In this document: positions 7,270 through 37,809 of the stretch, one piece after another
Position numbering within the stretch: the stretch's first letter is position 1
How the letters are laid out: each line of letters opens with the position of its first letter
Program-made: the position numbers and the translations under genes
Virus record (IMG/VR): IMGVR_UViG_2602041644_000008
Location: 1-37,809 of that record
Origin: a virus
Lineage: Duplodnaviria; Heunggongvirae; Uroviricota; Caudoviricetes
Strand: one strand, 5' to 3'
DNA: 37,809 nucleotides
Notes under the pieces: generated by a model
Seen by the model: only the letters and a program-made list of their open reading frames with translations
Databases searched by the model: none
Told to the model about the DNA's origin: nothing

Positions 7270-7535
7270 TTTACATCGCACTCCTCTTGTGCCATAGTAA
7301 TTGGGCACTGGCAAAATCCAGTGCCGGGATTGGTCTCCCGGATTACTACAGAGGCACATATGCCGCATAAGCGGTTTTTTTATGTGTAAAGCGCACCTAT
7401 TCTATGGTGAGCTGTGTGGGGGCACCGAAAGGTGCGCCGGGTTCCTTTGTAGCCGGTAAGACCAACTCTGCACAGTTCACCACCATCTGATTGGTCTCAG
7501 CGGTGGTGATTAACCTAACTACAAAGGTGATCGCC

Positions 7536-8228
7536 ATGAATACCAAACCTTCCATCTTTTCCTTTGAGTCATCCTGCCAGATCCGTATGTTCATGATTGA
7601 CGGAGAACCTTGGTTTGTCACCAAAGATGTGTGCAATGCTTTGAATATTGATGTTACACAAGCGAGAAAACTTGATAAAAAAGGCTGGAACAAAAAGGGG
7701 CTGTATTCAATACAGACCCCTGGTGGAATACAAGAACTATCCATCGTTTCAGAATCAGGTCTCTACATCCTTATTCTGCGTTGCAAAGAGGCAATGACAG
7801 AGGGAACGAGAGCGTTCAGATTTCTTGAATGGGTTACAGGTGAGGTTCTTCCTCAGATCCGCCGCACCGGAAGTTACATTAAAAACTCGCTCCCGCAGGA
7901 AGAACGCATAAAGATGGTTGCCGACCAGGTAGCCAACGCCACAGCATCAGCAATGATGCAGGCAATGAAGATAGAGAACAAAACCTACAGTGCCCCACTG
8001 AAGCCCGGCTACCGTAGCCTGATTCATTCTCCGTCTGGTGTTCTCGGCCTGACGGAGAACTCACTGCTGATGAATCTGCTGAACCAGTTACAGGAAGACG
8101 GGCACGATGTATCGGGCGCGGCGGCGGAGCTGACCACCATGTTCTGCTACATCGTCGGTGTGAGCAAATGCCTGCGTGATATCCAGACCCACGCGGAGTA
8201 CATCAACGACAAAGCAGGATTCTTCTGA
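7536..8228 (+). CDS. Bro-N domain protein (antirepressor-like, BRO family)
   Basis: Start moved to MNTKPS, which follows AAGGTG-N7-ATG. Bro-N signature FSFE...IRMFMIDGEPWFVTKDVCNALNI. C-terminal domain is paralogous to the 6133 ORF. Confidence 0.7.
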   Translation: MNTKPSIFSFESSCQIRMFMIDGEPWFVTKDVCNALNIDVTQARKLDKKGWNKKGLYSIQTPGGIQELSIVSESGLYILILRCKEAMTEGTRAFRFLEWVTGEVLPQIRRTGSYIKNSLPQEERIKMVADQVANATASAMMQAMKIENKTYSAPLKPGYRSLIHSPSGVLGLTENSLLMNLLNQLQEDGHDVSGAAAELTTMFCYIVGVSKCLRDIQTHAEYINDKAGFF

Positions 8229-9264: not shown

Positions 9265-9426
9265 ATGAAAAAAGCATTTGCTGCACTGTTCGTTTTGTTG
9301 TCTCTGGTAGCTTCAACTCAGGCCTTTGCCGGTCGTTGTCAGCACGACAGCGATACTGCCGCTGACGGCTCCCGCTGCGGTGGGCGTTCTGCGGATTCCC
9401 GCCCGGGCGGCGGTGGCATTCGTTAA
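9265..9426 (+). CDS. Small secreted peptide (signal peptide MKKAFAALFVLLSLVASTQAFA plus 31-aa Gly/Ser/Asp-rich part with 2 Cys)
   Basis: Internal ATG of tracked ORF 9193..9426. A 5-codon uORF (MEISQ, 9251..9268) with SD GAGGTGG overlaps this start as ATGA. Start site uncertain. Confidence 0.3.
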   Translation: MKKAFAALFVLLSLVASTQAFAGRCQHDSDTAADGSRCGGRSADSRPGGGGIR

Positions 9427-9455
9427 AAACAAGGCCGCGAAAGCGGCCTGTTTGA
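9425..9455. terminator. Bidirectional terminator between convergent genes
   Basis: AAAAACAA-GGCCGC-GAAA-GCGGCC-TGTTTG. Confidence 0.6.
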
Positions 9456-10307
9456 TCACTGTGCAGTTTTCGCTGATCGATTTTCAGCTCTAAATTCAAG
9501 AACCGTTTCAATATTTCTTTCCTTCAGCATATCAATAACATTTTTATTCACTTGACTATCACTGGTTAATAACTGGTAAACGTTGCTTCTCTCTTTATCA
9601 GAGTTTTCTTTAACAGCTGCTTTGCATGCCAAATGCTTATTGAAATTTTCTACATCGCTAGTACAGGAATTTACGGCTGCTGATGAAATATCAGACGCTG
9701 AAGAAACACCATCATCCAAACGTTTTATAGCATTTTCTATACATGAGTTAAGGGAATAAACGACAACTGAGCGATACCCTTCAGACGCACACCATTCTAA
9801 ATTTCTTGAAGGATCGAGTGGTTTTACTTCGCTGGATTGAATTAACTTGTCAAAAACTGACTTATATTCAATCTGTTTTTTATCTATAGCCCATACTTCA
9901 GTAGCTGATTTATAATTCCCCGTATGCCTATTAACATCAAATCCATGTTTTATAAGCAAATCTGCCCATGAAAGATTTATTGATTCATTGTTATGAGGCC
10001 ATTTTCCTGTCAGAACCGCCCCCATAGACCCCATATATCCGCCATATGATGGTATAGCACCATGGCTCAGTAACTTCTCAGCAACCACAGGGCAATTAAT
10101 TACATAAGAGGCGTAAAGCCCATTCCATAAAGCCCCTCTATAGTAATCGCCACGATTAGGTTCTTTTAAGTCGATAGCCTTTGATAATTGTTCACACGTT
10201 TTGCATGCATCAAAGTTATCCTTATTGCATTGCAATGAACTGGCAGCTGTAGGATTTACAGAGACTATTGAAAGCACTATGCCAAAAAACAAATTTATTT
10301 TTTTCAT
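9456..10307 (-). CDS. Secreted Cys-rich protein (283 aa) with ankyrin-like repeat signatures; last gene of the virion operon
   Basis: Signal peptide MKKINLFFGIVLSIVSVNPTAASS. 10 Cys. LLSHGAIP and LLIKHGFDVNRH resemble ankyrin repeat ends. Start is 1 nt after the stop of the gp16-like gene. Low GC. Confidence 0.5.
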   Translation of the reverse strand: MKKINLFFGIVLSIVSVNPTAASSLQCNKDNFDACKTCEQLSKAIDLKEPNRGDYYRGALWNGLYASYVINCPVVAEKLLSHGAIPSYGGYMGSMGAVLTGKWPHNNESINLSWADLLIKHGFDVNRHTGNYKSATEVWAIDKKQIEYKSVFDKLIQSSEVKPLDPSRNLEWCASEGYRSVVVYSLNSCIENAIKRLDDGVSSASDISSAAVNSCTSDVENFNKHLACKAAVKENSDKERSNVYQLLTSDSQVNKNVIDMLKERNIETVLEFRAENRSAKTAQ

Positions 10308-17484: not shown

Positions 17485-19955
17485 CAGAATCCCCCAACAG
17501 TAAGGCGAGGAATAACGGCAAGAACAGACAGCGGCAACGGATCAAGCTGACGGATTTTTACACGTCCGTTTTTGCCCCAGTTACTGTCCAGTTTCACTTC
17601 TACTTTTCCGGTAGCATCATCAACAGGATCATCGTAGAACTCGAATTCACGCTGTGGATATTCGTACCATTTACCGCCGGGCGTAGTCGCCCAGATGCCG
17701 CGACTGGCATTCACAACCAGAGTAACGGAGGGGATCACCTGTTTTTTGTCCAGCAGCGTTTCCTGTCCGTTAATGTTGATATCCAGTGTTTCGAATTCAG
17801 CAGTTATTGGCAGGCCGATGTGCACTACAGCCCCCGGAGATTCCAGCGTGACGGCACCTCCGGAAACCACTTTCTGTGGTTCCACGTTCGCATCAGAGAG
17901 AATGTTTACGGTCTGGCCTTCAAGATGAGACAGGCCTCCAAATGTCCGGCGCGCCATCTGCCAGTTCGTGGTGGCCACATTCCTGAGGGATGGCGGGACG
18001 TTCCTGTTAGCACGAACCACTACAGCGGTGTTGCTGGTTACAGAAATAATGTCGCAACGTAATTCTTTTGACACTTCATCGCCAGTATCAGGATCAGTTC
18101 CGGTATAAGGGAACTGTAGTTGCGCGCCGACATCACTACTGGTGAAGTACGCACCACCAGAAACACTGATTGTATATTCCGCATGGTAATCCCATTCACC
18201 AGAACCACCAGTGATGGTCATCGTTCTGTCAGACGTATTTCTTCCATCATAGCTAAGGCCAGAATCAACAAAGAAAGCATCTTCATCGCTGGTAAATAAA
18301 CGGCTGGACAGTCGCTCGATGTATCTCACTGTTTGCCCGTTAACGGTTCGGTTAACGACGAAATACACCGCATCTTCATTGCCTTCGCTGATACTGCATG
18401 TGCTTTCATATTTTCCGGTACTGGATTGTGGTGCCCATGCAAAAACCTGCTGATCACGCAAATAGGTCATCACCAGTAATTTACCGTCATCACGAATGCA
18501 GAAGGCACTGGAGTAAGGGACAATCGAGAAGCACCAGTCAACAATGCTGTGCTTCTGAAAAAGATGATTGGCAAGGATGGTCAGGTCGTTCCCCTGATAG
18601 CCGTCAACATCGAATGAGTAGGCCAGATCACGGACAACGCTGCCTTTCTCCTGGACGAACAGAGCAATATTCGCCACGGCAATTGGCGGGACGTTGCTTG
18701 AGCCATTTGATCCCTGAGAGCTGAATGCAAATGATGATGGGGTTAACACTTTGTTCTGGTCGCCGGTGATGACGTACTCACCTCCGGAAGTCAGCGCCAC
18801 CAGAGAACCAACATCAATCAGGTGACGGATCTCATTAACCTGACGCCCGGCATAGGTGTAGATAATTCTGTCGTCATCCTGCGTAGGATTGCTTTTGCCA
18901 AAATCCTTATAATCCCCGGTACGGCTGGCCCAGATAGTCTGAGGGAACGCAGTCGATGCGGCGAAGTAAAGACGTTGTTGATAATAAACAACAGTGCCAG
19001 GATAACCATTAACACTGTTCCAGGCATATTTAGCCCATTTATAGCTGGCATTATCCTCGCCAACGACCTGCGAAGGGATATAGGAAATCACCTCGGCAGT
19101 TGCAGTAGTTCCATTTGCAGCAGTGATACGGGCAATGCCAAAACCACTGTGCAGATATTCCCACTCAATGCCGGTATCATCATCACCGGATCCGCCCCAG
19201 CCATCCCATGATGTGCCTTCTGTATGCGAAGGGCGCAAAGTGCCTGTTTTACCTGCTGTAACAGCGCGATAGTAGTTACTGTCTGCACGGCGAACATCGT
19301 CAATCGACGTACTCTTACTGGTTTCCCATACCGGCACTGAATCCACTGCAGGCTGTTCCAGATAGAACAATTTGCCTACCTGCTCCGAGCCAAAAATAGA
19401 GGCGCTTGCCGTTAACGTAATTGTCCCGGTGCTGGCGCTGGCATAAACCGTCACTGACTCGTCAATATTGATATCTTCAAATGGTCCGTTCTTCGTTACC
19501 ACATCAACCAGTTGCCAGTTGTCATGCGCATAGCGACGCAACTCTTTCGGCGGGTATGCCGGATGAACCAGCGTAAGCACGTCTGCGCTTTGCGTGAATT
19601 TAATTCGGAACAGATCGGCTTCAGTATATGGCGTGGCAATTTCATAAATAACATTGCTGCTGTTCAGCACCAACGCACCATCTTTGATAACGCGCATGTA
19701 CTGGTGTCCGAACTCCAGAGCATAGGTCTGAACCGTCGAGAACTGGAACGGGATCAGGCGGCATTTCCGATTTTGGTATTTGGCGGCACCGACAAAACGC
19801 GTACCAGGTCGATTCTCAACGCCGCCATACTGCCGCACGATAAAGTTATCGCACTTGCGCAATGCTACCTGGTACTTCGCCATGTCAATACGCCCGTACA
19901 ACGACGGTCCAATCTCACCACCGGCAAAACTGGGCTGGATCCAACTGATAGCCAT
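17484..19955 (-). CDS. Tail tubular protein B / nozzle (T7 gp12-like)
   Basis: 823 aa versus 794 for gp12. N-terminus MAISWIQPSFAGGEIGP parallels gp12 MALISQSIKNLKGGISQQP. Follows the gp11-like gene. Confidence 0.55.
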   Translation of the reverse strand: MAISWIQPSFAGGEIGPSLYGRIDMAKYQVALRKCDNFIVRQYGGVENRPGTRFVGAAKYQNRKCRLIPFQFSTVQTYALEFGHQYMRVIKDGALVLNSSNVIYEIATPYTEADLFRIKFTQSADVLTLVHPAYPPKELRRYAHDNWQLVDVVTKNGPFEDINIDESVTVYASASTGTITLTASASIFGSEQVGKLFYLEQPAVDSVPVWETSKSTSIDDVRRADSNYYRAVTAGKTGTLRPSHTEGTSWDGWGGSGDDDTGIEWEYLHSGFGIARITAANGTTATAEVISYIPSQVVGEDNASYKWAKYAWNSVNGYPGTVVYYQQRLYFAASTAFPQTIWASRTGDYKDFGKSNPTQDDDRIIYTYAGRQVNEIRHLIDVGSLVALTSGGEYVITGDQNKVLTPSSFAFSSQGSNGSSNVPPIAVANIALFVQEKGSVVRDLAYSFDVDGYQGNDLTILANHLFQKHSIVDWCFSIVPYSSAFCIRDDGKLLVMTYLRDQQVFAWAPQSSTGKYESTCSISEGNEDAVYFVVNRTVNGQTVRYIERLSSRLFTSDEDAFFVDSGLSYDGRNTSDRTMTITGGSGEWDYHAEYTISVSGGAYFTSSDVGAQLQFPYTGTDPDTGDEVSKELRCDIISVTSNTAVVVRANRNVPPSLRNVATTNWQMARRTFGGLSHLEGQTVNILSDANVEPQKVVSGGAVTLESPGAVVHIGLPITAEFETLDININGQETLLDKKQVIPSVTLVVNASRGIWATTPGGKWYEYPQREFEFYDDPVDDATGKVEVKLDSNWGKNGRVKIRQLDPLPLSVLAVIPRLTVGGF

Positions 19956-25771: not shown

Positions 25772-25848
25772 GTGGCATTAGCTCAGTTGGACAGAGCAAC
25801 CGCCTTCTAAGCGGTTGGTTGCAGGTTCGAATCCTGCATGCCACGCCA
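25772..25848 (+). tRNA. tRNA-Arg (anticodon UCU)
   Basis: Cloverleaf: acceptor GTGGCAT/ATGCCAC, D-arm GCTC..GAGC, anticodon stem ACCGC/GCGGT with loop CTTCTAA, T-arm GCAGG-TTCGAAT-CCTGC, 3' CCA encoded. Resembles argU. Confidence 0.85.
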
Positions 25849-26011: not shown

Positions 26012-26038
26012 GCCCGGTTCGCCGGGCATTTTTTTAAG
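26012..26038 (+). terminator. Terminator-like hairpin 10 nt upstream of the Gp49-like start
   Basis: GCCCGG-TTCG-CCGGGC followed by ATTTTTTT, then RBS AAGGTGAG. Confidence 0.45.
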
Positions 26039-26046
26039 GTGAGATT

Positions 26047-26403
26047 ATGAACGACCAGCAAATCGAAAAAGAAATCGTTGAGAAAGGCAAAACCGCTCCG
26101 CGAGTTACGCCTCAATATATCGAAAGCATCATTCTTGAAGAGCATTTCTTTACTGCTTATGACGGCATTCGTGCTGCCAATATGGGCGTTGGCGATACGT
26201 GGACAGCGCATAAATCTACAGACCTCCTTACTTTCTGCGTACTGGTGCTGAAGAATGGCTTCACCGTCACCGGAGAGAGCGCATGTGCAAGCCCGGAAAA
26301 CTTTGATGCAGAAATTGGTCGGAAGATTGCCAGGCAGAATGCTGTAAACAAAATCTGGATGCTTGAAGGTTACTTGCTGAAGCAGAAGTTAAGCGAGCAA
26401 TAA
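26047..26403 (+). CDS. Gp49-like phage protein (unknown function)
   Basis: RBS AAGGTGAG. Sequence resembles the small Gp49 family common in enterobacterial prophages. Opposite strand to the flanking late genes. Confidence 0.5.
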   Translation: MNDQQIEKEIVEKGKTAPRVTPQYIESIILEEHFFTAYDGIRAANMGVGDTWTAHKSTDLLTFCVLVLKNGFTVTGESACASPENFDAEIGRKIARQNAVNKIWMLEGYLLKQKLSEQ

Positions 26404-26406
26404 CAC

Positions 26407-26420
26407 CGTGACATGTCACA
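26407..26420. repeat. Palindrome CGTGACATGTCACA (copy 1), at the 3' flank of terL and the Gp49-like gene
   Basis: Perfect 12-bp palindrome GTGACATGTCAC. Identical 14-mer recurs at 28673-28686. Confidence 0.6.
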
Positions 26421-26423
26421 AAC

Positions 26424-26451
26424 AGCCAGCCTATGAGCTGGCTTTGTTTTA
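26424..26451. terminator. Terminator AGCCAGC-CTATGA-GCTGGCT followed by TTTGTTTT
   Basis: 7-bp stem plus T-tract on the plus strand and an A-tract on the other side (weakly bidirectional). Separates terL and the Gp49-like gene. Confidence 0.55.
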
Positions 26452-26493
26452 TCCTCACCAGAGGATATCAACGACATTATCCCCACCAGCGGA

Positions 26494-27969
26494 TTAAGCA
26501 TAGGGATCGTAATCTGTAATGGCCTTGCCTTGCTGGTTCTGCTGACCTGGAATTCGCAGACGCTTCGACACAGGGAAAGCAAACGTCAGCAATAGCGCAT
26601 CGCCTTTACCCGGCGAACGCCCAAGCCGCTCCTTGATATCTTCCTTCGGTTCGATAACGATTTTACCGTCCACTCGAACTTTGTACTCTGCCGCCGACAG
26701 GTCGTCCGCTGTTTCCTGGTCATCAAGCATCCCGCCCAGCCTCAGCCATGTCTTGCATGAGTTGAACATCTCCCCACGCTTGTTGAGCATCTGCGGGTCA
26801 GTAGACGCGCCACCGAACGGAACAAGTTGCCATGTGCGCCCCCAACCGTCACCGATTGACTTCAGACCGGTACCGTAACCAAAGTCGATGAACACTGCGT
26901 CAGCCTGATACAGGTCTTCAAAGTCAGCGATACGCTTCGCCATAATCAGATCGTCGGTAGTCTTGTTGCCAGTCCACAGCACCTTACTGTGTAGCCCCTG
27001 CCGCAGGTATATCACCGCGTCATCAACGCCTGAATATGCCGGGTCAACACCGATTATCACCGGAGCATGCGCCACCTGCGCAGCGGTTACCACCCGTTTC
27101 ATTGCCTCATCAGTAAGACCGGTAGGGATAAACTGCAATTCAGATGCATCAGGGAATATGCCGCGCACACGGATTTTAACGAAGTCGCTGTCTTCCCCGT
27201 AGTCATCAACCCATTTCTGCAACTGCTGTTTGTTAGTGCCTTCCACCGTCCGGCTGTCAATCTGCGCAGTTTTCCAGCGGTGTTTATATTTGCGGAAACA
27301 TTCGCGGAAACGCCCGGTGTTACGTGTAGGGTTTCCGAACGCCACCCAGATAATCTCAGTGTCTTCGTCCGTAAGCGCACCCTCAGCAACTTCCCACACC
27401 AGATCCGCAATGTTCGACGCTTCATCGAATACCACGATGATGCGTTTGCGCTCGTTGTGTAGTCCGGCGAATGCCTCAGTGTTGTGCTCAGACCAGGGTA
27501 TTGCGTCAGCCCGCCACCGCTTGTCGTGCCCAGGGTCATTGCTGTACATCGCGGTAGCGGTACAGGTAAACCAGTCTTTCGTGATAGCAAGGTTAGACCA
27601 CTTGATAATTTCCGGCCAGGTCTTCGTTCGTAGCTGGTTGTCGGTGTTAGCGGTCACCACAACCTTACAATCCTCGCAAGTGGACATGCCCCAGTTGATC
27701 AGCATTGAGATGAATGCGGATTTACCAATACCGTGACCAGAAGCGCGTGCCAGCATAAGCGGCTGATAGCGCGTCTCTGGATTCTGCAGGTGATCACGTA
27801 TCTCTCGGAACGCATCAGCCTGCCACTGACGTGGGCCGGTGGCATGTGCCAGTTCAGTCCCCTCTTCCCCCCACGGGAACGCATAGAGAGCATAGCCAAG
27901 CGGATCGTGAGTGAACCCTGCAATATCCTCGATCAACTGCTCTTCAGGAGATAACGCTGTATCTGTCAC
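26494..27969 (-). CDS. Terminase large subunit
   Basis: 491 aa. ATPase region GHGIGKSAFISMLINW (Walker A-like) and VVFDEASNI (Walker B-like). C-terminal nuclease-like region. Overlaps the terS stop. Confidence 0.85.
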   Translation of the reverse strand: MTDTALSPEEQLIEDIAGFTHDPLGYALYAFPWGEEGTELAHATGPRQWQADAFREIRDHLQNPETRYQPLMLARASGHGIGKSAFISMLINWGMSTCEDCKVVVTANTDNQLRTKTWPEIIKWSNLAITKDWFTCTATAMYSNDPGHDKRWRADAIPWSEHNTEAFAGLHNERKRIIVVFDEASNIADLVWEVAEGALTDEDTEIIWVAFGNPTRNTGRFRECFRKYKHRWKTAQIDSRTVEGTNKQQLQKWVDDYGEDSDFVKIRVRGIFPDASELQFIPTGLTDEAMKRVVTAAQVAHAPVIIGVDPAYSGVDDAVIYLRQGLHSKVLWTGNKTTDDLIMAKRIADFEDLYQADAVFIDFGYGTGLKSIGDGWGRTWQLVPFGGASTDPQMLNKRGEMFNSCKTWLRLGGMLDDQETADDLSAAEYKVRVDGKIVIEPKEDIKERLGRSPGKGDALLLTFAFPVSKRLRIPGQQNQQGKAITDYDPYA

Positions 27970-28563
27970 TGATTACCATCCTGACGTTCTTTGAGTCGCT
28001 TCCTGGCTGCCGCTATGCGATCAGCAATTGTCACATTCACATTAACATCCAGGCGTTCTTTGAACGCGTTGACATCAACATGCTTACCAATCAGCTCAAG
28101 GTTCTTCACCTTGTCAGGCCATTTAATTTTTTTGAGGATTGTCTCTATCGAATCCTCGTTCATGTTCATGATGGTCGATGACAGATCAAAGCCACTAAGC
28201 GTAGTGCGCCAGATTTTCGGCCACTCACGGATTGGTTTAAGGCTCCCATCGTCGTTGAGGATGTCGATCACGTCCATCTGGTCGATCTCCACCAGGCGCA
28301 TGAGAACGTAATCAGCACTGACGCGCATTCGTTTGTTGCGCTCCTCCATCAACTCGGCAATCCGTTTTTGAATGCGTTCATCGCGCATCATGACACTGGC
28401 TTTAACTGCCGCTGTATTTGGGGAGAATCCTGCGTTAATCGCTGCCTGAGTTTGGTTTTCAGGCGTTTTGATGTATGACTGGCAATAAGCCTCCTGCATT
28501 GTTGTTAGTGGCTTAAATTGCGTTGATTTGCGTTTATAGGTTTTAGGTTCAGCAGGCATCATA
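27966..28563 (-). CDS. Terminase small subunit
   Basis: Start moved to MMPAEPK; the tracked N-terminal 26 codons translate the operator/terminator repeats. HTH-like N-terminus and basic C-terminus. Directly upstream of terL. Confidence 0.65.
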
Positions 28564-28595
28564 ACCACCGTGGTAATAGTTACCGTTGTGGTAAT
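28561..28595. promoter_or_regulatory. Two adjacent operator-like dyads (ATAACCACCGTGGTAAT and GTTACCGTTGTGGTAAT) over the terS start region
   Basis: 6-N5-6 dyads matching the genome-wide motif. Located between the upstream terminator and the terS ATG. Confidence 0.5.
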
Positions 28596-28602
28596 AGTAC
28601 CA

Positions 28603-28631
28603 TGCAAAATAAAGCCGCCATAGTTGGCGGC
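28603..28631 (-). terminator. Rho-independent terminator upstream of terS (end of early/nin transcription or tR'-like element)
   Basis: Minus strand GCCGCC-AACTAT-GGCGGC followed by TTTATTTTG. Confidence 0.55.
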
Positions 28632-28672
28632 AGTATTCAAAATCCATCAAATTCATCATGCATAATCTACTC

Positions 28673-28686
28673 GTGACATGTCACAC
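28673..28686. repeat. Palindrome CGTGACATGTCACA (copy 2), upstream of terS
   Basis: Identical 14-mer to 26407-26420. Overlaps the stop codon of the 28681..29028 gene. Confidence 0.6.
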
Positions 28687-29028
28687 TATTAATTTCGTTT
28701 CATGCCAGCCTTTAGTCACCCAGCATTGCGAGTCACCATTACACGGGCATGAATTAACGGGAACTCTCTCGCCGCACTTACCGCAAAGTTTTCTGCTGAT
28801 CGATTTTATACGCCCGCGCACACGTGCATCATCCTGGCGGATCAGCAGCGCGATGTACTCGGCCATTTCATAGGGATCGCGACCAGGGCGCCGGGCGGCG
28901 CAGTTCCGCGCCAGCATTTCCTGCTCCTGCTTATCCAGCACCAGTTCAATTTTGCGCTCACCGGCGGCGGACTGCCGAGCGCGCTGCGCGGCTTTGCGTT
29001 CTGCGGGGGATTTAGCCACGAATCGCAC
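28681..29028 (-). CDS. Basic protein with C-terminal Cys cluster (CGKCGERVPVNSCPCNGDSQC); candidate zinc-binding late-gene regulator
   Basis: Arg/Ala-rich N-terminus and putative zinc finger. Immediately upstream of the palindrome/terminator/terS region, by analogy to Q/Ogr-type positioning. Confidence 0.4.
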   Translation of the reverse strand: MRFVAKSPAERKAAQRARQSAAGERKIELVLDKQEQEMLARNCAARRPGRDPYEMAEYIALLIRQDDARVRGRIKSISRKLCGKCGERVPVNSCPCNGDSQCWVTKGWHETKLIV

Positions 29029-29134
29029 TCCACGCCAGATTGATTAATGACTCCCAGGCAATATAAACCCGGATACCAGCAGCCAGGCCGAAACCAATCA
29101 CCATGGCATAAAGCAGAGCGTTGCACTTGTTCAT
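29015..29134 (-). CDS. Tiny hydrophobic peptide (39 aa, MNKCNALLYAMVIGFGLAAGIRVYIAWESLINLAWSAIRG)
   Basis: Untracked short ORF with one TM helix, coupled (ATGA-type overlap) to the upstream gene end. Speculative. Confidence 0.2.
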
Positions 29135-33193: not shown

Positions 33194-33238
33194 TAAAAAC
33201 CACATAAGACACGAAATCAATAGATCTTAGAACATTTT

Positions 33239-33255
33239 ATTACCTAGCAGGTAAT
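33239..33255. promoter_or_regulatory. Operator dyad ATTACCTAGCAGGTAAT
   Basis: Perfect dyad between the post-P terminator and the DUF1064 gene. Confidence 0.55.
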
Positions 33256-33264
33256 TATCAAGAC

Positions 33265-33291: not shown

Positions 33292-34092
33292 TTACTTGAT
33301 AAATCCTGCCGCCTTTCCCCGCCTGTATTCCTCCATCAGCCACTGCGCCGGTGTTATTCCCCCCAGGGTAGCGGCGTTAGGCATACACCCGAAACTTCGC
33401 CCTGGTGGATGGTAAACGCCTCTCCCTGTGTCCGGAGGCGTACTCATGGGTTCTGGCTTTGCCTGTATGCTGATCACCGGATCGGGTATCTGCTGTCCGG
33501 AAGCCACCTTTTTCGCCCAATCATCAAGCAGCCTGCGCGCGTGTTTCTCAACCTCAATCTCGCTAAGCTGGCGCTGATACATTGCACGGCGGGTATCACA
33601 TACGACCCAGTACATAACCGGATGCCGCCACGGGAATCTTTCGGGACCACCAGGATATAAACTTTTTTCCTTGCTGTACCGGTGAAACTCCGCCATCACA
33701 TCGTCAATGGTGACGCCAAGAACCATCTTGCTGTCTTTACACCACTTGATAAATTGCCCTGGCGACGGCCAGAACGGAGATTCACTGGCGCGGGCGTGGC
33801 GCATACCAGCAGAAACCTGTTCACGGGTTCGGATCCCCCCTTCGGCAAACGCAGCAATCCACTGCTGTTTTGCAGCAACTTCCTGCTCTGGCGTCTTCAG
33901 GTTGGTTACCACTGCCGCCGGAAACAGTTGTTTCAACTGTTTGAAAAGGGCATCAACAAGCCTCTCTGCTGACATGTTCACTACGTTGTCATTGTTGGTG
34001 TACTGATGCTCATAACCTGACATGCGAGAAAGGGCTTCTCCGTCACGGTTTTGTATCGCGGTAAAAACGTTGTTCACAAGAAATCCTCCCAT
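33292..34092 (-). CDS. Replication protein P-like (lambda P family, DnaB helicase loader)
   Basis: EQEVAAKQQWIAAFAEGGIRTREQVSAGMRHARASESPFWPSPGQFIKWCK aligns closely with lambda P QNEVNEIRRQWVLAFRENGITTMEQVNAGMRVARRQNRPFLPSPGQFVAWCR. Confidence 0.75.
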   Translation of the reverse strand: MGGFLVNNVFTAIQNRDGEALSRMSGYEHQYTNNDNVVNMSAERLVDALFKQLKQLFPAAVVTNLKTPEQEVAAKQQWIAAFAEGGIRTREQVSAGMRHARASESPFWPSPGQFIKWCKDSKMVLGVTIDDVMAEFHRYSKEKSLYPGGPERFPWRHPVMYWVVCDTRRAMYQRQLSEIEVEKHARRLLDDWAKKVASGQQIPDPVISIQAKPEPMSTPPDTGRGVYHPPGRSFGCMPNAATLGGITPAQWLMEEYRRGKAAGFIK

Positions 34093-34889
34093 GCTTCAGG
34101 GCTGTTCCAGTGCGGAACGTTGTTATCAGGTAATGTTGATTGCTTCTGTCTGCTAATCTGCAGCCGCCTTGCCAGCTTCTGCTCCCACTGTGCCTGATGG
34201 TATGCCCTACCCTCAGCCATCCAGTAAATTCTGAACTCTGCAAGTTCCTGTGCCGTTGGCAGACTGTCCAGGTAGATCCCCTGCAATGAGCTTTTCCGAA
34301 GAAAGTCATCTGATGGCTGCCATTGTTCATGCATGACAAATTTGCCTAATTGCCCTGGCCCACCAGGAGGAACAAAGTTATTCATCACGGCGTTGTTTGC
34401 GCCGGGGTCATGATGCACAGAATCCCCGTTTTTTGTCCTGCTCTCCCTCTCTTGGTTAAATGACTGGTTATATGACTGGTTCTGGATCCCGTTTTTGGGA
34501 TCATTCAACATCCCGTTTTTGGGATCATTCAACATCCCGTTTTTGGGTATATTCCCGTTTTCGGGAACATTACCGTTTTCGGGTTCATTACCCCCTTCCC
34601 GGTTGCCTTTAATGTTCCCGTTTTTGGTTATATTAAGAGAGAAAACCCGCACTCTTTTCGTCGCTCCCTTTCTCTCTCCGGTATCTGAAATAAGCCCCAT
34701 TTTCATGAGCGATATAAGCCCGGCCTGCACGGTTTTTTTATTCAGGCAAGTGTCTTTAACGAGGCGTTCTATGCTGGGGTAGCAGAGGTTATATTCATCG
34801 GCTCTGTCAGCCATCGAGAGCAGTATGAGCTTTAATGACGAGCTACCTGGATCTGTCTCCCAGGCCCAATCTGTTGCATGTCTGCTCAT
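34074..34889 (-). CDS. Replication initiator (lambda O-like: N-terminal HTH DNA-binding domain, Asn/Gly-rich repeat linker, C-terminal domain)
   Basis: RBS GGAG-N8-ATG. Peptide repeats (ENGNVPENGNIPKNGMLNDPKNGMLNDPKNGIQ) encoded by iteron DNA inside the gene, as in lambda O. Position is immediately upstream of the P-like gene. Confidence 0.6.
   Translation of the reverse strand: MSRHATDWAWETDPGSSSLKLILLSMADRADEYNLCYPSIERLVKDTCLNKKTVQAGLISLMKMGLISDTGERKGATKRVRVFSLNITKNGNIKGNREGGNEPENGNVPENGNIPKNGMLNDPKNGMLNDPKNGIQNQSYNQSFNQERESRTKNGDSVHHDPGANNAVMNNFVPPGGPGQLGKFVMHEQWQPSDDFLRKSSLQGIYLDSLPTAQELAEFRIYWMAEGRAYHQAQWEQKLARRLQISRQKQSTLPDNNVPHWNSPEAWEDFL
34476..34630. repeat. Origin of replication: about 6 iterons (ATCCCGTTTTTGGGAT-type dyads) plus adjacent AT-rich stretch, inside the O-like gene
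   Basis: GATCCCGTTTTTGGGATC x2 (34476, 34500), ATCCCGTTTTTGGGTAT, TTCCCGTTTTCGGGAAC, TTACCGTTTTCGGGTTC, TTCCCGTTTTTGGTTAT, then ATATTAAGAGAGAAAA. Also direct repeat ATGACTGGTT x2 (34451-34472). Confidence 0.65.
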
Positions 34890-35640: not shown

Positions 35641-36225
35641 ATGAAAAGTATCCAGGACGTCCGCAGGCAAAATCTCAACGACTTGATCGACCGTGAATTC
35701 AATGGTGTTCAGACGCGGATGGCTGAAAAACTTGGAACTCAGGCAAATCTGGTAAACCGCTGGGCTCTTGGCAAGAAGGTTATCGGCGACCAGGTTGCGC
35801 GAAAAATTGAAGCTGCCGCCAATAAACCCCGTAACTGGCTTGATATCGATCGCTCGCTTTCTCAGGAAGGTTTTCAGCCTGTCGGACCAAGCGACATTGG
35901 TCAACTGGCGGCTCACAACCTGGAACGCTGGATGAGCGAAAGCCGCGACCTTTCAACGCAGGGAAAACTTCACCGCGCATCCGGCGTCGCCCAGGTAACA
36001 ATCAGCCGCCTGTTAAACAATGAGGTCAGCGTTTCCATTTCCACCCTGGAGAATGTTGCATCCGCATTTGGGCGTCACGGATATGAATTACTGATTCACC
36101 CGCACGACCCCGCGACTATCAACTATGACCGCTCGCGCTACGCATTGTTACCTGAAACAGAGAAGGCAAAGATCGAAAGTTACATTGAATTTGTCATCAA
36201 CCAGAACGAAAAAAACAAACAATAA
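35641..36225 (+). CDS. Prophage repressor, two XRE-type HTH domains, no S24/LexA-like peptidase domain
   Basis: HTH1 TRMAEKLGTQANLVNRWALGKK. HTH2 LHRASGVAQVTISRLLNNEVSVSISTLENVASAFG. No Ser/Lys autocleavage module. Divergent from cro with three operators. Confidence 0.65.
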   Translation: MKSIQDVRRQNLNDLIDREFNGVQTRMAEKLGTQANLVNRWALGKKVIGDQVARKIEAAANKPRNWLDIDRSLSQEGFQPVGPSDIGQLAAHNLERWMSESRDLSTQGKLHRASGVAQVTISRLLNNEVSVSISTLENVASAFGRHGYELLIHPHDPATINYDRSRYALLPETEKAKIESYIEFVINQNEKNKQ

Positions 36226-36833: not shown

Positions 36834-37036
36834 AACCAACACTCCTCTCATTGCTGCGAGGTGGAAAACACAGCATCCGAGATATGGCAAAGATTCTTGG
36901 TATCTCAAGATCGAAGGTTTCTTGGTTCATCGCTGAGCTTGAACGTCGCAAATGGGTAGAGGTAACCAGGAGCGCAATATATTTCCACGATGGAACCAGA
37001 TCCAACAAGCAGAACGAATACAAGGTTAAGTTATGA
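36830..37036 (+). CDS. Small winged-helix/HTH-like protein (68 aa)
   Basis: IRDMAKILGISRSKVSWFIAELERRKWVEV is HTH-like. Stop overlaps the next start. Confidence 0.4.
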   Translation: MKPTLLSLLRGGKHSIRDMAKILGISRSKVSWFIAELERRKWVEVTRSAIYFHDGTRSNKQNEYKVKL

Positions 37037-37560
37037 ATACTGGCATCTATTTCGACATCAGCAATGAGGACTACCACGCCGGTGACGGCGTGAGTAAGTC
37101 GCAACTAGACATGGTTGCCAAGAATCCGGCGCTTCTTAAATGGGTTCAGGCAGCACCAGAAGACGAAGAGAAAAAGTCTGCACTGGATATGGGAACCGCA
37201 TTGCACTGTCTGCTTCTGGAGCCTGGAGAGTTCGACAAACGCTTCATTGTTTCACCGAAATTCGATCGTCGGACGAAACAAGGTAAAGCTGACGAAGAGG
37301 CATTTCTTCGTGATGTGGCGGATATGGGGATTACGGTACTTGATGCCGAGCAGTGGCGGAAACTGGAGCTGATGCGTGATAGCGCAATGGCTCACCCGGC
37401 GGCACGCTGGATGCTGGAAGCACCTGGTTACTGCGAAGCATCAATGTACTGGAACGATGAAGATACTGGTGAGTTGTGCCGCATTCGTCCAGACAAATGG
37501 CTGAACGAGCACAACGTGATCGTCGACGTGAAAAAGGTTGCAGATATGGACCGTTTTGCA

Positions 37561-37581
<21 letters not shown>
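37033..37581 (+). pseudogene. RecE/YqaJ-like PD-(D/E)XK exonuclease, 3' truncated by IS insertion
   Basis: Motifs GTALHCLLLEPGEF, IRPDKW and IVDVKK (catalytic D-x-K) present. Expected C-terminal region replaced by CQRHDV-stop, read from IS-derived sequence starting near 37561. Confidence 0.5.

Positions 37582-37809
<228 letters not shown>

Follow-up and report, generated by a model that had tools for sequence, protein, structure and literature searches.

In phage genomes, the slot of the last early gene is the classical position of activators such as Q, gp23 and the RinA-type proteins, and in phages of Gram-positive bacteria the RinA/ArpU-type late activators are encoded just 5' of terS, the small terminase gene. 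In the Q/qut/tR' arrangement of lambda, as with the Q proteins of N15 and phiKO2, the last early-right gene is followed by a strong terminator and then by the late genes, and a small protein with a zinc-binding motif is paired with a nearby DNA site. The same order is found in the 37,809-nt stretch of viral DNA analyzed here (IMG/VR record IMGVR_UViG_2602041644_000008; hereafter the window), which holds most of a phiV10/epsilon15-like (Uetakevirus-type) prophage with its rightward and late genes on the minus strand. In this prophage a gene for a small protein with a cluster of cysteines, the Cys-cluster gene, is the final early gene ahead of a strong terminator, T1, and terS. A reading made from the letters alone (the sequence-only reading) had proposed that this protein is a late activator or antiterminator, and that the protein, a palindrome, the terminator and two operator-like dyads upstream of terS form a late switch in the style of Q or Ogr but with unrelated parts. 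All the elements of this stack, i.e., the Cys-cluster gene, the palindrome, the terminator, the repeats and terS, were indeed found in that order on the minus strand, and, as had also been claimed, there was no Q, Ogr or Mor/C homolog elsewhere, either among the 29 window open reading frames (ORFs) scanned or in the annotation of the complete phiV10 genome. We argue here that the protein and the palindrome very likely constitute a functional DNA-binding pair, as predicted from sequence, and that this pair is shared by several types of phage, some of which have a Q or an Ogr of their own.

The Cys-cluster ORF (28681..29028, minus strand) is open from a GTG at 29028, which gave the 115 aa of the sequence-only reading, but the probable start is the GTG at 29019, for a gene at 28681..29019 and a protein of 112 aa, the length of most homologs. 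This GTG overlaps the TAA of an ORF for a 40-aa membrane protein (GTGGCTAA; ORF at 29012..29134, minus strand; phrog_5525), which is probably translationally coupled to the Cys-cluster gene because its stop overlaps the start of the latter. Residues 5-114 of the 115 match the PHROG profile phrog_536 (E = 1.2e-53), the name of which, 'transcriptional regulator', is an annotation label only, and there was no significant sequence match in Pfam, NCBIfam or the PDB. The family comprises 233 clusters at 50% identity among 1.84 billion representatives, with nearly all members between 105 and 135 aa; the longer representatives, considered as a clue to function, gave none, as they appear to be fusions with Ead/Ea22 or terminase fragments that arose in gene calling. 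Conserved across the family are an N-terminal basic motif (RKxAQRxR), a core resembling a strand-helix-helix unit, and four cysteines in the spacing CxxC-x8-C-x7-C, which are invariant or nearly so. The AF2 model of the protein has a pLDDT of 82. Foldseek found nothing in the PDB with it; structural comparison gave a ribbon-helix-helix (RHH)-like fold with weak scores, the best structural match being MatP-matS, and some relatives have sub-threshold matches to the Pfam family RepB-RCR_reg (PF10723), which is of the RHH type. As modeled, the protein probably consists of an RHH domain followed by a C4 zinc ribbon. Because of the phrog_536 match, the RHH-like fold and the conserved cognate palindrome described below, we regard it as very probably a regulator that binds a specific DNA sequence, an operator of its own.

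The palindrome next to the gene, S1, is a perfect 12-bp sequence, GTGACATGTCAC, at 28673..28684, which contains the TGA stop codon of the gene (28683-28681) and lies about 110 nt 5' of terS. An identical, perfect copy, S2 (26408..26419), sits just beyond terL, the large terminase gene, and thus on the far side of the terminase genes; it is 4 nt past the stop of a gp49/Sf6-gp66-like gene that is convergent with the late operon (26047..26403, plus strand; PF13876) and 4 nt ahead of a second terminator, T2. By chance, about 0.03 occurrences of GTGAC-N2-GTCAC would be expected in the window. Of 75 related IMG/VR loci, 49 have S2, and phiV10 has it too, at position 2262. The linkage of site and gene extends to distant homologs (35-63% identity), since in ZF40, in phiKO2 and in a Yersinia P2-like phage GTGAC-N2-GTCAC is again at or over the stop codon. 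A site at the stop was found in all 51 N15/phiKO2-like loci, where the center is TG or GG and the TGA is inside the site, and in about 24 of 34 prophage loci from some 30 species of Enterobacterales. The half-sites are conserved and the center varies (AT, TG, GC, AC, CT or AG; it is AT in ZF40 and GC in the Yersinia phage), and the spacing is fixed: the 34 gene-carrying prophage loci (269 kb) have 38 sites with a spacer of 2 and none with spacers of 0, 1 or 3-8. Whole genomes of phages with the gene have 1-3 sites each, against about 0.03-0.05 expected, and lambda and the Pseudomonas phage AF, which are without the family gene, have zero N2 sites. Lambda has two GTGAC-N1-GTCAC sites, at 9747 and 19010 inside the genes G and lom (about 0.045 expected), which are probably due to chance. 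This combination of conserved half-sites, a variable center and constant spacing is the hallmark of an operator bound by a dimeric protein. A cognate operator is a mark of the RHH superfamily, and here it is seen by association, the N2 palindrome being tied to the gene in every lineage examined. S1 is the probable operator of the Cys-cluster protein. Our search of the literature turned up no paper with the site sequence GTGAC-NN-GTCAC.

The number and position of the further sites differ between phages. Vibrio K253 has three, one of which is 31 nt before the ATG of terS; two of the three in ZF40 are inside coding regions; the Yersinia P2-like phage has a single site, as do the N15-like loci within the stretches fetched. 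In four IMG/VR loci, an exact 14-mer, TGTGACATGTCACG, covers what look like codons 2-5 (MRDMSQ) of a lambdoid Q gene; the Q ORF under it was confirmed in one of these, L155 (PF06530, E = 1.5e-48; site at about position 1238), in which a family gene is present as well, again with a site at its stop codon. The site is thereby found at the doorway to late functions in three lineages, before terS in the window and in K253, and on the codons of the Q gene in the IMG/VR loci. Where the structural operon ends, phiV10 and many IMG/VR relatives have a third copy, beside the bidirectional terminator GGCCGCTTTCGCGGCC; in phiV10 it is at position 19493 (region 19485-19525) and adjoins a terminator, T3, after gp21. 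The window keeps the GGCCGCTTTCGCGGCC terminator (9412-9460), with no palindrome and with a different last gene (9456..10307). In the phiV10 copy after gp55, GTGACATGTTAC, one position is mismatched; the GenBank record starts, arbitrarily, within this copy and so cuts it in two (39093-39104 plus 1-8). The idea that the record starts of phiV10, Tyrion and E15 are physical genome ends at the palindrome was rejected, as the starts differ and follow gene numbering.

Comparison of relatives indicates that the stack upstream of terS is made of three separable modules, namely gene and palindrome, spacer, and T1 with the terS leader element, and is not one integrated switch. T1 (28606..28631, minus strand) has the stem GCCGCCA-ACTA-TGGCGGC (28631..28614) and the tail TTTATTTT down to 28606. 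With a 7-bp stem of which six pairs are GC, a 4-nt loop and a U-tract, it has the features of an intrinsic (rho-independent) terminator; the hairpin is folded in both the minimum free energy and the centroid structures, and it is invariant in the alignment of diverged relatives. It is predicted to be strong and would end the early-right operon. T2 (26424..26453, plus strand; AGCCAGCC-TATGA-GCTGGCT, then TTGTTTTATC) is predicted to be strong on the plus strand, where the gp49-like gene ends, and weak for late (minus-strand) transcription after terL. The succession of stop, site and strong terminator is thus seen with S1 and T1 and with S2 and T2 in the window, and with gp21 and T3 in phiV10. 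A terminator is not an obligatory partner of the site, as it is within 80 nt in only 31 of 100 distinct contexts, and in none of the N15-like contexts within 400 nt. Where a terminator follows, the distance to it is not constant: it is 41 nt in the window and about 225 nt where a 70-aa accessory ORF intervenes, and in the loci with LexA-controlled morons it exceeds 320 nt or there is no terminator at all. The 41-nt spacer between S1 and T1 aligns with the first and last codons of the 70-aa ORF, and its mini-ORF MHDEFDGF* (28637..28663, minus strand) aligns with this ORF in two related loci; on this alignment, the spacer is an in-frame deletion remnant of the 70-aa ORF that many relatives have between palindrome and terminator. 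The palindrome stays with the Cys-cluster gene, and at least 8 different sequences follow it in the relatives, including the 70-aa ORF, LexA-box promoters driving umuD-like genes, and other ORFs; T1 and the TTACC-N5-GGTAA element of the leader travel with terS. The unit of gene and palindrome is found in at least five phage types (Uetakevirus-like, ZF40/lambdoid, N15-like, P2-like and a Vibrio siphophage), with neighbors as varied as NinB (the lambdoid 'ren/ninA slot'), xis-int and a P2-type portal gene, and at three genomic positions the mosaic junctions match the site edge to the base, with at least 7-8 alternative flanks each. In seven of the loci, a LexA-box promoter (TACTGT-N8-ACAGTA) is inserted exactly between the palindrome and terS and drives a umuD-like ORF in most of them, so that SOS induction could send transcription directly toward the terminase genes in these loci.

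How does this unit compare with the systems it was likened to? The Cys-cluster protein has no Pfam match to the Q families (PF06323, PF06530 and PF03589), even at E values up to 10, whereas gp38 of phiKO2 and ORFs of L155 and of another locus, L111, match them strongly; there was likewise no match to the Ogr/Delta family PF04606 and no homology to Mor, so the parts are unrelated, as the sequence-only reading had said. Its homologs coexist with a genuine Q in N15 (gene 40), phiKO2 (gp38), L111 and L155, and the P2-like Yersinia phage vB_YenM_201.16 has both a true Ogr (PF04606, E = 3.9e-21) and a member of the family; in such Q- or Ogr-bearing phages the homologs, with the same palindrome, sit far from terS. 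Because homologs with the same palindrome coexist with genuine Q or Ogr, the family, judging from these genomes, is not a general replacement for either, and the proposed late activator is supported in part, as a DNA-binding regulator (by phrog_536, fold and palindrome). The likeness to Q/qut/tR' was not borne out either: in contrast to lambda, the site is outside a promoter, with no promoter or pause element evident, and the region between S1 and T1 that would have to hold such embedded elements is the deletion remnant, and relatives have other genes in its place. No credible sigma-70 promoter was found at the palindrome or between T1 and terS, and the only promoter-like match (9/12), which overlaps the palindrome, is no better than chance (1 found, 2.5 expected). 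With P2 Ogr and P4 Delta, the protein shares small size, four zinc-binding cysteines, a temperate phage host genome and a presumed role in transcription, but these are proteins of about 72 aa with the spacing CX2C-X22-CX4C, and the family differs from them by its CxxC-x8-C-x7-C spacing and its added RHH-like domain. A profile match to the C4 zinc finger of DksA/TraR (E = 0.65-0.76) was not significant, and the TraR-type spacing, CxxC-x17-CxxC, differs.

The resemblance to MatP of E. coli is of another kind. The matS site is a 13-bp sequence, GTGAC-RNY-GTCAC (PMC6907758), and its half-sites are identical to those of the palindrome, and the predicted core of the Cys-cluster protein is RHH-type like that of MatP, but the spacer of the palindrome is 2 bp and not 3, and zero N3 sites occur in the window. 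Homology of the protein to MatP was considered and rejected (hhalign probability 0.13%, BLASTP E = 13); the Cys-cluster protein has a predicted C-terminal zinc ribbon in place of the coiled coil and no four-helix bundle, and MatP-matS is a chromosomal macrodomain system, unlike this phage-encoded family with its 1-3 sites. The RHH repressors (Arc, Mnt, the CopG/RepB-type regulators and the ParD-type antitoxins) are similar in predicted fold, small size, palindromic target and the tight linkage of gene and operator. They differ in that the probable operator of the Cys-cluster family is at the 3' end of the gene, inside the stop, and not in the promoter, and in that the protein carries a predicted additional C4 zinc ribbon and matches no curated family at threshold. 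Finally, the position immediately upstream of terS in the phiV10/epsilon15-like clade is that of the RinA/ArpU-type activators; there was no match to these families in the Pfam and PHROG scans, and the gene is away from terS in other phage types. The family very probably belongs among the small phage DNA-binding regulators, outside the Q, Ogr and MatP families, and is unusual in three ways: it probably combines an RHH domain with a zinc ribbon, its probable operator lies within the stop codon, and its half-sites resemble those of matS. It had been catalogued before only as a PHROG with a generic name, and our literature search turned up no function for the products N15 gp46, epsilon15 gp49 or phiV10 gp55.

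The elements closest to terS turned out to be a separate matter. The terS gene (27966..28562, minus strand; Pfam Terminase_2, E = 1.5e-29; phrog_51) starts at the ATG at 28562, behind the Shine-Dalgarno (SD) sequence GGTGG at 28569-28565. Its leader element (28570..28605, minus strand) has a conserved block, GCATGGTACTATTACC-ACAAC-GGTAA (28605..28580), in which the inverted repeat TTACC-N5-GGTAA (28594..28580) is the part conserved among relatives; in this lineage, two exact 11-bp direct repeats, ACTATTACCAC (28598-28588 and 28580-28570), lie around it. The repeats that were described as two operator-like dyads are thus present (2 copies against 0.34 expected, a count reached by 2 of 100 shuffles) but are really two direct repeats around a single conserved inverted repeat. 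Comparison of relatives assigns them to the terS leader and not to the Cys-cluster gene. The block GCrTGnTAnnATTACC-N5-GGTAAy does not vary among terS relatives as far apart as 68% aa identity, lies at a constant distance from the SD of terS, and persists where T1 is absent and where umuD-like or other genes part terS from the Cys-cluster gene, and the element is without a GTGAC half-site. Because the block is invariant without covariation, comparison suggests a protein site rather than an RNA hairpin; the inverted repeat could be a TerS/pac site or the site of a regulator. The predicted fold of the window RNA does allow the repeats to pair with the SD and start codon of terS, but this pairing is not conserved and shows no covariation, and an SD-sequestering hairpin was not retained. 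The leader repeats and the dyad may be read as a pac-like recognition region of the small terminase, or as an RNA or protein operator for terS translation, and not as operators of the Cys-cluster protein, a reading that we put somewhat short of an even chance. It draws on the invariance of the block at a fixed distance to the SD, on the missing half-site and on the pairing in the window. Against it are the lack of conservation and covariation just described, and the literature searched gave neither packaging mode nor termini for the phiV10/epsilon15 group. For a pac site, pacL of SPP1 is a precedent, and the TerS of SPP1 is of the Terminase_2 family.

The rightward arm of the prophage begins with the gene for a CI-like repressor (35641..36225, plus strand), after which come a PR-like promoter (35540-35512), a cro-like gene, a strong tR1-like terminator (35234-35215) and the O-like and P-like replication genes. 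The P-like gene is followed by RusA, Ead/Ea22, Mom-like and DUF551 genes, the 40-aa membrane ORF and the Cys-cluster gene, and then by the intergenic region, terS, terL (26494..27969, minus strand; phrog_2 and phrog_5902), the portal gene and the structural genes. This terL is 99% identical to that of phiV10, and the region around the stack is 93-99% identical to phiV10-like phages. The best sigma-70-like match of the arm (TTGATA-16-TAAAAT, 10/12) is in the gap between the P-like gene and rusA (33234-33261, minus strand), and may serve the nin-like genes, the Cys-cluster gene among them, as an internal promoter. Within the O-like gene (34074..34889), tandem repeats at 34453-34592, with periods of 12, 24 and 18 bp and 2.6 perfect copies of the 24-bp unit ATCCCGTTTTTGGGATCATTCAAC, are probably origin iterons. 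Between terL and the portal gene, an accessory island breaks up the late operon. It has a tRNA-Arg gene (anticodon TCT; 25772-25848) on the plus strand, against the direction of the late operon, then a terminator at 26012-26027, and the gp49/Sf6-gp66-like gene that converges with the operon. Elsewhere in the window, the Rfam elements isrK (7305-7381) and C4 antisense RNA (7400-7487), both on the plus strand, are directly 5' of an Ant-type anti-repressor gene (7491..8228, plus strand; phrog_130), a unit that looks like the immI-like antirepressor control module of P1/P7 or the isrK-like module of Gifsy in a podophage-type prophage. At the window edge, the C-terminal end of an IS21 IstB-like gene (37621-37800, minus strand; PF01695, E = 4.5e-14) adjoins an apparently truncated RecE/exonuclease VIII-like gene (37033..37581, plus strand), and therefore an IS element seems to have been inserted into the recombination region of the prophage.

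What the protein might do at its site can be hypothesized from this arrangement. The Cys-cluster protein would have an N-terminal basic arm, an RHH core for dimerization and DNA binding and a C-terminal C4 zinc ribbon, and its operator, GTGAC-NN-GTCAC, would overlap its own stop codon. Gene and site would form a portable unit that many temperate phages of the Enterobacterales and Vibrio have close to where their early (replication/nin-type) operon ends, and that in the phiV10/epsilon15-like prophage has come to lie at the early/late junction, S1 being 41 nt before T1. A dimer made from the early operon would then occupy S1 and S2 and act as a gate to RNA polymerase where transcription units end. 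Because the order of stop, site and strong terminator recurs and because of the RHH precedent, we lean to a roadblock or a reinforcement of the terminator rather than to Q-like antitermination. We infer both the binding of the palindrome by the protein and any effect on transcription, with its direction; that the gate obstructs is a view we hold loosely, and the mechanism as a whole, a transcription gate at operon ends that probably obstructs passage, we put forward tentatively and as something that may well turn out otherwise. Several observations weigh against it. A roadblock leaves the activation of the late genes in this clade unexplained, with T1 strong and no sigma-70-like promoter between T1 and terS, and a negative regulator made just before the late genes is hard to reconcile with the timing. 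In the N15-like and xis/int-adjacent contexts no terminator follows the site, and in ZF40 the sites in coding regions add to this, and therefore the operon-end rule is not universal. The coincidence of mosaic junctions with the site, to the base, could moreover point to recombination rather than transcription.

The late genes are what a positive switch would explain. The protein would load onto RNA polymerase from the palindrome, with the zinc ribbon as the polymerase contact, and read through T1 (T3 in phiV10), thus extending the early-right transcript into terS, terL and the virion genes, in a manner functionally like Q or N but built from unrelated parts. The last early gene directly before the late operon would be the expected place for such a protein, the gene is found in every enterobacterial Uetakevirus-like phage record and is thus core to that clade, and no Q, Ogr or Mor was seen in the window ORFs scanned or in the phiV10 annotation. 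From this gene content, late control by the Cys-cluster protein within the phiV10/epsilon15-like clade is plausible. Because T1 is strong and no promoter follows it, read-through of some form is required; S1 is ahead of T1, the phiV10 site at 19493 adjoins T3, and even the faint, non-significant match of the C-terminus to the zinc finger of TraR (E = 0.65), which binds RNA polymerase, would fit. We nevertheless consider a positive switch unlikely, since phages that have a Q or an Ogr themselves also carry this gene and site, at places away from late operons, and the distance from site to terminator is not conserved. For late transcription, S2 comes after T2, and for the convergent accessory gene, which T2 stops, it comes before this terminator, so that antitermination there would drive antisense transcription into terL, and the tR1-like terminator at 35234-35215 is passed before the protein is made, which means that some other means of read-through is in place already. 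Nearly all RHH proteins are repressors, and we know of no precedent for an antiterminator loaded from a double-stranded DNA palindrome outside a promoter.

The site could also serve the DNA and not transcription, as a pair like MatP-matS or a centromere, with roles in DNA compaction, segregation of plasmid-prophages, exclusion of host complexes of the SMC/MukBEF type, or control of replication or packaging, or it could be a preferred crossover for accessory cassettes. With 1-3 sites per genome, some of them in coding regions (gp08 of ZF40, a YdaT-like gene, the start of Q), the distribution is atypical for operators; the family is found in the plasmid-prophages N15, phiKO2 and Vibrio K253 (with ParA), and the mosaic junctions fall exactly at the site edge at three positions. 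Junctions of this sort are, however, also expected from purifying selection on an intergenic site together with genome streamlining, and no recombinase is linked to the unit. Neither the sequence of the protein nor the 2-bp spacer agrees with MatP and matS, and a genome with a single site cannot bridge DNA within one molecule. Such a non-transcriptional role appears to us improbable. A broader conception, of a horizontally mobile phage system that marks the ends of transcription units and the points of cassette exchange, with its operator in its own stop codon, we would regard as doubtful; it could take the form of a terminator-coupled gate for late genes, unrelated to N, Q, Ogr or Mor, or that of a MatP-like system for marking or cassette exchange. 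For the present, the obstructing gate at operon ends is the reading that we prefer.

Our search of the literature turned up nothing on late-gene switching in epsilon15/phiV10-type phages, i.e., on late transcription in the Uetakevirus group, a member of which, phiV10, serves as a reporter phage for E. coli O157:H7. At the early/late boundary of these phages, the Cys-cluster protein is the only regulator-like core gene product without an assigned role. Since the 12-bp target of this compact, uncharacterized family is precisely predicted, its function can be tested directly in tractable phages such as phiV10, N15 and ZF40. Considering that the site is found at the insertion points of morons and on the first codons of some Q genes, the protein and its palindrome may bear both on the control of timing and on the mechanics of phage mosaicism.

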